From assembly GCA_000002435.2 (NCBI GenBank), contig CM018792.1: DNA of 64,000 nt; one strand, written 5' to 3'. Source of the stretch: Giardia intestinalis. Taxonomy: Eukaryota. Positions 59,181 to 64,000 of this stretch are shown here, in pieces (the first letter of the stretch is position 1; the number at the start of each line of letters is the position of its first letter). A program made the position numbers and the translations under genes. The notes beneath the pieces are model-generated. The model did no database searches, was not told the origin of the DNA, and saw only the letters and a list, made by a program, of their open reading frames with translations.

Positions 59181-61064
59181 ATGTTGTTGGTAGCTTTCTA
59201 TTTTGTGCTGAGTGCTCTCGCGGCAGCATGCAAGCAAGCACAAAATTGTGCAAATGAAAGATGTGAAATGGTTGGCGAAACAGAAATATGCACAGAATGT
59301 AAGGACCAAGGAAATGTCCCCGTTAACGGAGTATGTATGCCGAAAGATAATGACGCCGTTACAACTGCTGGTTGCAAAAAGAATGGAGGCGCTGATTTAG
59401 GAGCAGAAGACAAGGTATGTGGACAATGCGACGGGGTTCACTTCCTCTATAAGGGTGGTTGCTATAGCACCGCCGATGCGACCGGGCAGAAGTTATGCAC
59501 CGATGCCGCGGAGGGAGTGTGCTCAGCGGCCGCAGTGGGGTACTTCATTCCACCGGGGGCACAGAAGACAGACCAGTCTGTTATCTTGTGTGGTGATGTC
59601 ACTGAGATAACACTGACCAATGGCAAAAAGTATAAAGGAGTTCAGCATTGTACAGTATGCACTGCTCCTGAAGCAGCAGAGTCTACTGCTAAGCCTGCAG
59701 TGTGCACAGCTTGTGACGAAGGATTCTTTGCCGCATCTGAGGGAACATGCACAGCTTGTGCTGACAACAATAATTGCGCTAAGTGTGATGCAGGAGCAGA
59801 TAAATGTACGAAGTGCAAAGCAACCGCTGCCAATAAATATTTTAAAGATAGTGGCGATGGAACGGGCACATGTGTCAATGAACAGACCTGCAAAGAACAA
59901 AGTACCCATTTTCCAAAAGATGATCCCAATAATGGCAACAAATGCTTATCTTGTAGTGATGATAAAAGTGGTGGAATAGCAGACTGCAAAACATGCACTC
60001 CAAAGGAGAATTCCGAAGGCCCAATTCTCATTACATGCTCTGCTTGTGCAACAGATACCAACAAACCCAATGTTGCCGGGACAAAGTGCATTGCATGCAC
60101 TGTAAAAGATTGCAAGAAGTGTAATGACGATGGCACGTGTGCAGAGTGCGACAATACTAGGAAGCTCACCCCGACAAAGGAGTGCGTAGATAAGTGCGAA
60201 AAGCTTGAGGGATACTTTGACGGAGATGATGGTACTTGCAGGGCGTGCAACTCTGTCTGTAAAACGTGTAACGGTGAAGATCCATATCAGTGCACCGGCT
60301 GTCCTGCAAAGAAGGTGCTTAAATACACCGTTGAAAGCACTCCGGACAGTGGTAGCACCTGTGTAGACGAGTGCACAACAAACACAAATGGCTGTGCAGA
60401 ATGCGGCGCAACTATCGGAGAAGCTAAGTACTGCTCTAAATGCAGCGACGCCAAGCAAGCACCGCTGAATGGTAACTGCACTGCTAGTGTTAGAGCAGCC
60501 GCATCATGTACACAAATAGAAAACGGCATTTGTAAGAAATGCGCTACTAACTATTTCCTTTTCGAGGGCGGCTGCTACGAAACCACCAGGCAGCCTGGGA
60601 TGCAGATATGTAAGGATGCTGCAGGGAACGACGGCAAGTGCAAGACATGTGCCAATAACCTACCCTCCAACATCGATACCGGGGCCTGTCCTTCATGCCC
60701 AGCAGGTTGCGCCACGTGTACGGCAGCAGGGCAGACGTACACATGTCAGACTTGTCTTGCTGGATACTATCTTGATTCTACTAAAAACTTGTGCATAAAA
60801 TGTACTGAGAGTAGCGGTAATATCCAAGGCGTTACTAATTGCGTTAGCTGTAACCCGCCAGCTGGTAATAGTGGCCCTGTCACCTGCTATGTAAAGAAGG
60901 ATGGCACTAGCGATGGCGGTAACGATAACAGCACCGGTGGTAGTACAAACAAGAGCGGCCTTAGCACAGGCGCCATTGCAGGCATCTCTGTTGCTGTCAT
61001 CGTCGTTGTGGGTGGGCTCATAGGGTTCCTCTGCTGGTGGTTCATCTGTAGGGGGAAGGCGTAG
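59181..61064 (+). CDS. Variant-specific surface protein (VSP), intact
   Basis: Signal peptide MLLVAFYFVLSALAA. The body has many CxxC motifs. The tail is the canonical TM-plus-CRGKA* sequence. An AGTAAAC polyA signal lies at 61079-61085. The last 178 bp of the coding sequence and the 539 bp beyond the stop lie within an inverted-repeat arm (60887-61603). Confidence 0.93.
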   Translation: MLLVAFYFVLSALAAACKQAQNCANERCEMVGETEICTECKDQGNVPVNGVCMPKDNDAVTTAGCKKNGGADLGAEDKVCGQCDGVHFLYKGGCYSTADATGQKLCTDAAEGVCSAAAVGYFIPPGAQKTDQSVILCGDVTEITLTNGKKYKGVQHCTVCTAPEAAESTAKPAVCTACDEGFFAASEGTCTACADNNNCAKCDAGADKCTKCKATAANKYFKDSGDGTGTCVNEQTCKEQSTHFPKDDPNNGNKCLSCSDDKSGGIADCKTCTPKENSEGPILITCSACATDTNKPNVAGTKCIACTVKDCKKCNDDGTCAECDNTRKLTPTKECVDKCEKLEGYFDGDDGTCRACNSVCKTCNGEDPYQCTGCPAKKVLKYTVESTPDSGSTCVDECTTNTNGCAECGATIGEAKYCSKCSDAKQAPLNGNCTASVRAAASCTQIENGICKKCATNYFLFEGGCYETTRQPGMQICKDAAGNDGKCKTCANNLPSNIDTGACPSCPAGCATCTAAGQTYTCQTCLAGYYLDSTKNLCIKCTESSGNIQGVTNCVSCNPPAGNSGPVTCYVKKDGTSDGGNDNSTGGSTNKSGLSTGAIAGISVAVIVVVGGLIGFLCWWFICRGKA

Positions 61065-61603
61065 ATGTGTACTTAGATAGTAAACGCGTTACTTACGTAG
61101 CTTGTGTAGATATGCTGATAGGTCCACCTGCAGTGCGTCCAGAAGTCTCACGAGTAAACTTTCGCTTAATTCCTGGCCAATCCAGAGACGAAGCCTGATC
61201 GTAGACAGCATGCTAGGGGCTTCCCTCTACTAGTGCATCCAGGACCCGGTATATTCATCGGTCGCTTCGCAGGGATGTGCTCGGTTTGGGTATCCACGTC
61301 GGTCCTTTAGGGGTTCAGGTCTTCTCGTGGACCCTCTGCTCTATCAGTGGCGCCTCTCCTTGGTCTCTCTTCATAGCGGGTGAAGCCCGGGTCGCTGTCT
61401 TTTTTAGATGCCCCGTCTGTCGGGGGCTGCTACCGGGCTCTCCACTGGCCGCCCCTCGGTGTCCGGCTGTGGCTCGGGCAGCGCTCTACAGTCGCGGTCA
61501 CGTAGGTCCCAGTGGGCCAGCTGGTGGGGAGGCGGGGTTGCTGGGGCGGTGGGACTGGTGGGGGCTGAGGTGGGGGTGCTTGTATGTGCCTCTGGGTCCG
61601 GTG
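60887..61603. repeat. Inverted-repeat arm A (VSP 3' end plus 539-bp 3' flank); in-window portion
   Basis: Reverse-complement identical to 63284-64000 in the segments compared by eye (61065-61445 and the arm junctions). The breakpoint is at 61603/61604. The arm probably extends leftward through the whole VSP gene, but the partner arm leaves the window at 64000. Confidence 0.85.
61079..61085 (+). promoter_or_regulatory. Giardia polyadenylation signal AGTAAAC (VSP)
   Basis: AGTRAAY consensus, 15 nt after the stop. Confidence 0.7.
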
Positions 61604-63283: not shown

Positions 63284-64000
63284 CACCGGACCCAGAGGCA
63301 CATACAAGCACCCCCACCTCAGCCCCCACCAGTCCCACCGCCCCAGCAACCCCGCCTCCCCACCAGCTGGCCCACTGGGACCTACGTGACCGCGACTGTA
63401 GAGCGCTGCCCGAGCCACAGCCGGACACCGAGGGGCGGCCAGTGGAGAGCCCGGTAGCAGCCCCCGACAGACGGGGCATCTAAAAAAGACAGCGACCCGG
63501 GCTTCACCCGCTATGAAGAGAGACCAAGGAGAGGCGCCACTGATAGAGCAGAGGGTCCACGAGAAGACCTGAACCCCTAAAGGACCGACGTGGATACCCA
63601 AACCGAGCACATCCCTGCGAAGCGACCGATGAATATACCGGGTCCTGGATGCACTAGTAGAGGGAAGCCCCTAGCATGCTGTCTACGATCAGGCTTCGTC
63701 TCTGGATTGGCCAGGAATTAAGCGAAAGTTTACTCGTGAGACTTCTGGACGCACTGCAGGTGGACCTATCAGCATATCTACACAAGCTACGTAAGTAACG
63801 CGTTTACTATCTAAGTACACATCTACGCCTTCCCCCTACAGATGAACCACCAGCAGAGGAACCCTATGAGCCCACCCACAACGACGATGACAGCAACAGA
63901 GATGCCTGCAATGGCGCCTGTGCTAAGGCCGCTCTTGTTTGTACTACCACCGGTGCTGTTATCGTTACCGCCATCGCTAGTGCCATCCTTCTTTACATAG
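63284..64000. repeat. Inverted-repeat arm B (mirror of 60887-61603)
   Basis: See arm A. The breakpoint is at 63283/63284, and the arms are symmetric about a 1,680-bp spacer. Confidence 0.85.
63823..64000 (-). CDS. VSP, 3' end of an inverted duplicate copy (continues beyond window)
   Basis: 63284-64000 mirrors 60887-61603 in reverse complement, including the CRGKA tail codons, the stop at 63823-63825 and the polyA signal (gtttact at 63802-63808). I compared mainly 61065-61445 against its mirror and both arm junctions by eye, and found no mismatch; the remainder of the arms was not checked base by base. Confidence 0.85.

Follow-up and report, generated by a model that had tools for sequence, protein, structure and literature searches.

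A catalogued tail-to-tail VSP gene pair on chromosome 4 of Giardia intestinalis WB, read as a palindrome whose arms are probably kept identical by gene conversion

In this work, we analyzed a 64,000-nt stretch of Giardia intestinalis DNA (contig CM018792.1; the whole stretch is referred to below as the window), near the right-hand end of which a gene for a variant-specific surface protein (VSP) faces the inverted 3′ end of a second copy of itself. The locus is the catalogued identical inverted VSP pair of WB chromosome 4, and it matches tail-to-tail pair #20 of Adam et al., 2010 (PMC2996952). Taken as a whole, the catalogued pair is in our judgment best explained, with somewhat better than even confidence, as a gene-bearing palindrome whose arms are kept identical by arm-to-arm gene conversion. 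The anatomy of the locus, its identity and its membership of a published family of such pairs could be established directly; that identical arms are also converted arms is a step that we infer.

A repeat search of the window returned one large inverted repeat only, with arms at 60887-61604 and 63283-64000 that are 718 nt long and 100% complementary, and direct string comparison bore out their exact reverse complementarity. The arms are separated by 1,678 nt of unique sequence. The outer limit of the left arm at 60887 is the mirror of the window end at 64000, and is thus a window-edge artefact rather than a true boundary. In contrast, the inner breakpoints at 61604 and 63283 are sharp: arm identity is 100% up to 540 nt past the stop codon, and beyond that point there is no similarity detectable by blastn. 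The stop codon of the left copy (61062-61064) is mirrored at 63823-63825, giving a stop-to-stop distance of 2,758 nt (61065-63822). An earlier note, made from the letters of the sequence, had described a tail-to-tail inverted repeat around a spacer of ~1.7 kb, with the stop codon and an AGTAAAC signal inside the arms and sharp inner breakpoints. Sequence scanning and string comparison agree with this description over the full 718 nt, except that the note had placed the inner ends one base short (61603 and 63284) and had given the flank as 539 rather than 540 nt. The only other repeat in the window is a 115-nt match, at 84%, to the conserved VSP 3′ end (5372-5486), and a chance origin of the inverted repeat is therefore excluded. 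This match is carried by a second, short VSP-family open reading frame (ORF) at 4493-5488 (331 aa; Pfam VSP, E=6e-27). Sequence comparison found no look-alike of the flank or of the spacer elsewhere in the window. The parts of the locus are as follows.

59179-59185, plus strand: VSP initiator (Kozak-like element) CAATGTT, across the start codon; read from the sequence
59181-61064, plus strand: left VSP copy, 627 aa; ORF ending in CRGKA; Pfam PF03302
60887-61604, plus strand: left palindrome arm, visible part; last 178 nt of the ORF and 540-nt 3′ flank; repeat search and string comparison
61065-61604, plus strand: duplicated non-coding 3′ flank of the left copy; 540 nt, 59% GC, 14% A
61070-61089, plus strand: extended VSP polyadenylation motif TACTTAGATAGTAAACGCGT; sequence scan; mirror at 63798-63817
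61153-61159, plus strand: second AGTAAAC; sequence scan; mirror at 63728-63734
61605-63282, no strand: spacer, unique and non-palindromic; 1,678 nt, 61.7% GC, A 14% on the plus strand
63283-63822, minus strand: duplicated 3′ flank of the right copy; mirror of 61065-61604; polyadenylation motifs at 63798-63817 and 63728-63734
63823-64000, minus strand: 3′ end of the right VSP copy; stop codon (63823-63825) and final 59 codons, the remainder lying past the window end

The product of the left ORF matches PF03302 with E=1.3e-89 (301 bits, cut-off 31.4), and its C-terminus is formed by a transmembrane segment and, after it, the invariant CRGKA tail. Together with the CAATGTT initiator, these features bear out the earlier identification of the gene as a VSP. 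Indeed, Table S1 of a recent preprint (bioRxiv 10.1101/2022.03.07.483299; hereafter the preprint) gives this gene 25 CXXC motifs, the signal peptide MLLVAFYFVLSALA and the inr_sequence 'caatgtt', and its Table S6 enters TACTTAGATAGTAAACGCGT for both copies at +9..+28. The 627-aa protein is 100% identical to the G. intestinalis WB protein KAE8303879.1 / KAE8303880.1 / XP_001709823.1 / XP_037901983.1, of which KAE8303879.1 and KAE8303880.1 are consecutive accessions for one identical 627-aa protein. The two genes are GL50803_00103992 and GL50803_00d103992 on chromosome 4 (supplementary tables of the preprint); judged by accession order, the left copy is probably the 'd' copy, GL50803_00d103992. 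Table S4 of the preprint lists the pair as '-> <-' with nothing between the genes, which it places 2,758 nt apart, Table 2 of Xu et al., 2020 (PMC7000408) reads 'chr4 d103992 103992 -> <- 627 aa, 2758 bp', and Table 5 of Adam et al., 2010 gives for pair #20 2,759 bp from ORF to ORF, with 3′ divergence setting in 541 nt beyond the stop. The published inter-ORF distance of 2,758 bp is exactly that of 61065-63822. Since these entries match, the pair, its spacing and its sharp 3′ divergence point were already in print in 2010 and 2020.

The second copy is supported as a full, identical and convergent gene, as the earlier note had supposed. This rests on the twin accessions, on the published tables and their 2,758-bp spacing, and on mapping of RNA sequencing (RNA-seq) reads rather than on the sequence of the window. 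Both copies are listed as identical in two papers (Adam et al., 2010; Xu et al., 2020). Furthermore, RNA-seq reads that map uniquely to 103992 are essentially absent, and the gene shows 34-45 transcripts per million (TPM) when two locations are allowed.

The pair is one of a published family. The identical VSP pairs of WB comprise 12-13 convergent and 7 divergent ones (convergent-pair table: Xu et al., 2020). For 12 convergent pairs, Table S4 of the preprint gives 2,526-2,813 bp between ORFs with nothing annotated between; the preprint also sorts the intergenic regions of convergent pairs into two 'very similar' groups and places 103992 with vsp1267. Table 5 of Adam et al., 2010 covers nine tail-to-tail pairs, in which the ORFs are 2,393-3,222 bp apart and 3′ divergence begins at 318-559 nt (486-559 in seven pairs, 318 and 354 in the other two). 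The same authors found identical vsp genes only as inverted pairs, which they termed 'interesting, but cryptic', and G. muris has 7 identical inverted pairs. An inverted pair is recognized by inverted copies, 2-4 kb of non-coding sequence between them and abrupt divergence of the flanks 139-729 nt from the ORF (Adam et al., 2010; Xu et al., 2020); the pair studied here is convergent, with 2,758 nt between ORFs and divergence at 540 nt. In all measurable features it is like the identical inverted vsp pairs of WB, of which vsp1267 is the prototype, with no difference found, and it is a member of that set rather than an analogue. The cloning of vsp1267 as a pair of this kind dates from 1991 (cited in Adam et al., 2010), and the earlier note, which had vsp1267 as tail-to-tail copies separated by about 3 kb, agrees with Adam et al., 2010 on this point. 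Within WB, the nearest other VSPs are at most 49% identical to the 627-aa protein. The main text of the preprint describes the vsp1267 pair (112208) as head-to-head and 119706/119707 as tail-to-tail, but its own Table S4 and Xu et al., 2020 reverse both orientations; Adam et al., 2010 also has vsp1267 tail-to-tail, and the tables fit the convergent layout seen here.

The spacer gave no Pfam match above noise, no Rfam match and no conserved ORF. It contains no 12-mer with at least 10 A/T, that is, no AT-rich initiator-like stretch, and blastn shows no palindromic symmetry within it. A small G-rich tandem repeat, the only one nearby, is located in the arm, at 61521-61563 of the left flank (17-nt unit, 2.5 copies). 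Immediately inside each breakpoint, 56 nt retain 73% inverted similarity, a value reached by 3 of 2,000 shuffles. A longer symmetry between the spacer halves was considered and set aside: the two halves gave a long gapped local alignment with a score above that of shuffles, yet this was off-diagonal and of low identity, and was regarded as compositional. On the plus strand there is a strand bias (A 14% vs. T 24-27%) that runs unbroken from 61065 to ~63100 and flips near the right arm. Because this bias continues unbroken from the left flank, the spacer looks like an extension of the downstream region of the left copy.

Related sequences place the locus in a wider context. Three metagenome contigs (L001-L003) encode a VSP 84% identical to the 627-aa protein. 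L001 is colinear with the window over 58427-62831 at ~85% identity, as a mosaic of 60-98% per 150-nt bin, and the spacer is colinear with L001 and L002 at about 76-92% identity. Since both of these contigs cross the left breakpoint into the spacer colinearly and unbroken, the junction of left arm and spacer is real and older than WB. The mosaic is also seen within the gene, where the WB VSP (59181-61064) and L001 (752-2629) are 96-98% identical over 60150-60900 and 60-78% identical over 59850-60150; segmental exchange among VSPs could be the source of this pattern. In P15, the closest relative (67% aa identity) occurs as a lone VSP with inverted arms on either side; these are at least 6.36 kb long and 98.7% identical (L004 3461-9815 / 11983-18347), and their 71 substitutions are clustered between long identical tracts. 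A second P15 VSP has the same layout at a contig end (L006 9508-9853 / 11889-12242), with arms of at least 354 nt at 96.9%; both arm lengths are lower bounds, as the arms are cut at contig ends. Two of the three P15 VSP loci compared as relatives of the WB gene thus have a single VSP in the loop of an inverted repeat, whereas in the WB pairs the VSP lies in the arms.

The palindrome, in which identical arms, each made up of a complete VSP gene at the least and 540 nt of flank, would face each other across a 1,678-bp GC-rich, A-poor and non-coding core, belongs to a set of about 12 tail-to-tail VSP modules that share geometry and, as reported, have similar spacers. We propose that the module is old and that recurrent intrachromosomal gene conversion from arm to arm holds the arms base-for-base identical; the breakpoints at 61604 and 63283 would then mark the limits of the homogenized tract. 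The outcome would be two copies of one antigen gene that can stand in for each other, rather than a device dedicated to RNA silencing. Several observations favor this proposal. Because 540 nt of the identical sequence is non-coding, selection on the protein cannot explain the identity of the arms. Nor is the sequence intrinsically slow-evolving, since the arms differ from each other by 0% and from the homologous locus in L001/L002 by ~15%. Spacers that are shared, genes that have diverged and partners that are identical argue together for concerted evolution, and the residual 56-nt similarity is what one would expect to remain of a longer and older repeat homogenized only as far as the breakpoint. 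The patchiness of the P15 arms, with identical tracts between clusters of substitutions, is conversion-like and favors gene conversion, as does the confinement of identical genes to inverted pairs, a pattern repeated in G. muris. Moreover, gene conversion is documented in Giardia, and VSPs are enriched among converted genes (PMC12669663). The suggestion in the earlier note that the palindrome homogenizes the two copies fits this evidence. A number of points weigh on the other side. The homology of the modules by descent and the identity of the arms over the whole gene are taken from published tables rather than from alignments of our own, and should be read as such. Adam et al., 2010 themselves favored transposition together with recent duplication, and perfect identity would likewise follow from a very recent duplication. 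In addition, L001 and L002 run unbroken through the inner breakpoint, the L001-L003 lineage may lack the pair, and the 56-nt residual similarity is weak evidence.

The main rival is the view of Adam et al., 2010, that the pairs arose by recent inverted duplication or transposition, are young, undergo no ongoing homogenization and diverge with time. Zero differences in 718 nt and abrupt breakpoints count in its favor, and relics of retrotransposons have been reported near VSP pairs. We nevertheless consider it possible rather than probable, given that about 12 independent events would be needed, each placing a VSP with ~320-560 nt of flank in inverted orientation ~1.6-1.7 kb away. It also sits poorly with the similar spacers reported between pairs whose VSPs have strongly diverged, with the occurrence of identical copies only as inverted pairs and never as direct or dispersed ones, with the same pattern in G. 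muris, and with the degenerate symmetry that remains inside the breakpoints. An error of the reference, in the form of a fold-back or a collapsed repeat, is a different matter. Duplicated VSPs were formerly suspected to be artefacts of older assemblies, and none of the independent sequences retrieved confirmed the right junction at 63283. However, a Sanger assembly (2010: 2,759 bp, 541 nt) and a PacBio plus optical-map assembly (2020: 2,758 bp) agree within one bp, vsp1267 was cloned as such a pair long before either, the spacer is long, unique and asymmetric, unlike a fold-back point, and two independent metagenome contigs, L001 and L002, run colinearly across the left junction. Such an artefact is exceedingly improbable.

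The earlier note had further proposed that read-through across the spacer from either copy makes the locus a source of double-stranded RNA (dsRNA), and had suggested strand-specific RNA mapping as a check. Table S9 of the preprint provides strand-specific TPM for seven libraries with reads at two locations allowed. The VSPs compared here are a small sample picked by accessibility, and the values concern long RNA only.

Pair 103992: median sense 40.7 TPM, median antisense 16.4 TPM
Six other convergent pairs: median sense 22-71 TPM, median antisense 46-135 TPM
Two divergent pairs: median sense 2.5 and 4.2 TPM, median antisense 20 and 69 TPM
Seven unpaired VSPs: median sense 3.7-1,222 TPM, median antisense 9-135 TPM

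Antisense RNA is indeed present at 103992, at 11-27 TPM across the seven libraries and with an antisense/sense ratio of 0.40, but it is the lowest among the seven convergent pairs sampled and is not elevated over that of unpaired VSPs; the enrichment by which a hairpin small interfering RNA (siRNA) locus would be recognized was thus not seen in this small sample of long RNA. In the same sample, silent convergent pairs had a median sense signal of 22-71 TPM, vs. 2.5-4 for silent divergent pairs and 4-22 for most silent unpaired VSPs. According to the preprint, sense RNA exceeds antisense RNA in only 12-20% of VSPs, the others having more antisense or no transcripts. Because unpaired VSPs and divergent pairs have similar or higher antisense levels, the tail-to-tail layout is not needed for VSP antisense, which suggests that this layout is not what generates it. 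At 103992, antisense RNA is neither elevated nor dependent on convergent pairing. The dsRNA-source model is disfavored, and since antisense RNA is present at the pair, we regard it as weakened rather than refuted.

The corresponding rival explanation is that read-through from each copy yields antisense or long hairpin RNA that feeds VSP silencing by Dicer, RNA-dependent RNA polymerase (RdRP) and Argonaute. The geometry would permit a hairpin with a perfect stem of at least 718 bp, components of RNA interference have been linked to the control of VSPs, and overlap of convergent 3′ ends is pervasive in Giardia (81% of tail-to-tail pairs; PMC3610916). The antisense RNA at 103992, and the greater sense signal of the sampled silent convergent pairs relative to silent singletons, can be counted on the same side. 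Read-through would, however, have to pass two AGTAAAC polyadenylation signals within 95 nt of each stop and then the remaining 2.6 kb of 59-62% GC, and the antisense signal at 103992 is exceeded by the sense signal. The antisense levels of unpaired VSPs (9-135 TPM) and divergent pairs (20-69 TPM) match those of convergent pairs (16-135 TPM), and an excess of sense RNA in so few VSPs indicates that the pair layout is not needed. On balance, silencing through read-through is unlikely. A broader idea is that the conserved module, made up of a VSP, a flank of ~530 nt, an asymmetric core of ~1.65 kb, a second flank and a second VSP, is a functional unit and not a by-product, either because rare read-through produces a kilobase-long perfect hairpin whose conserved 3′ VSP sequence seeds Dicer/RdRP silencing across the family, or because the core serves as a cis element in the choice of expression site or in arm-flipping, homogenizing recombination; this we consider highly doubtful. 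The earlier note had also raised extrusion of the palindrome as a cruciform, but general considerations make a cruciform unlikely with 1.7 kb of spacer between the arms.

The human Y chromosome offers known examples of palindromes (P1-P8) that bear genes and whose arms are held identical by gene conversion between them. Like these, the Giardia locus has near-perfect arms that include non-coding DNA, a unique spacer and multicopy genes in the arms, and its divergence between lineages may likewise lie far above that between arms. The human palindromes differ in scale, measuring tens of kb to Mb rather than kilobases, and in Giardia, a tetraploid, binucleate and apparently asexual protist, conversion is a proposed process. 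The other obvious comparison is with the hairpin-RNA, or inverted-repeat endo-siRNA, loci of animals and plants. The likeness lies in the inverted repeat with a loop and in the implication of Giardia Dicer, Argonaute and RdRP in silencing of the VSP family. Unlike those loci, the Giardia VSP arms end in strong polyadenylation signals and are intact, expressible protein-coding genes; in the clone that expresses it, for example, the vsp1267 pair reaches 17,987 TPM (Table S9 of the preprint).

Upstream of the pair, the gene at 45819-50396 encodes KAE8303878.1, an M60-domain protein. Since KAE8303878 directly precedes KAE8303879, no gene is annotated in the 8.8 kb between the M60 gene and the VSP, and this desert (50397-59180) has no ORF of at least 200 aa. 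The P15 arms of L004 are colinear with the WB desert over 53935-58995 at 60-72%. Another P15 locus (L016) is syntenic with the window: its M60 gene and a desert are followed by the inverted remnant of a VSP 3′ end (18310-18394) and then, 266 nt downstream of this remnant, by a 409-aa VSP (18660-19889); this contig ends 597 nt past the stop of the 409-aa VSP, near the position at which the WB arm ends. WB, P15 and the L001/L002 lineage all retain a small hairpin-forming motif ~200 nt upstream of the VSP start; in P15, 3 nt separate it from the point at which the 6.36-kb arm ends on its inner side.

Motif CCCTGCGTGTTG(T/C)GCAGGG: window 58962-58980; L004 9794-9812; L001 540-558; L002 311-329

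Attempts to follow the repeat outward gave no mark of its outer boundary: Logan contigs with the upstream M60-domain gene end less than 400 nt past that gene, short of the repeat, and the DH contig likewise ends 414 nt past it. Twin accessions were sought for ORFs of the upstream desert or the spacer, but nine of the ten ORFs had no record in the collection and the tenth was uninformative. At the right junction, a 34-mer from the spacer had no match among JGI metagenome contigs, and no record was found for a 203-aa ORF that spans the junction. One further metagenome contig, L007, has an overlap of 355 identical nt with L001; it also contains, at 88% identity, a homologue of window 54363-58777, beside genes not in the window. 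One of these flanking genes (670 aa) has orthologues in P15 and assemblage B and none in WB among the hits. The L001/L007 lineage probably lies outside assemblage A. L007 was considered as the right-hand flank of the palindrome, which would imply an inversion of the spacer between lineages, but this was dropped since, for lack of a WB orthologue of the 670-aa gene among the hits, the contig is unplaceable on the WB map.

The pair described here adds nothing to the published description of the Giardia VSP repertoire. Identical inverted VSP pairs have no demonstrated function, and they may bear on the mechanism of mutually exclusive VSP expression.

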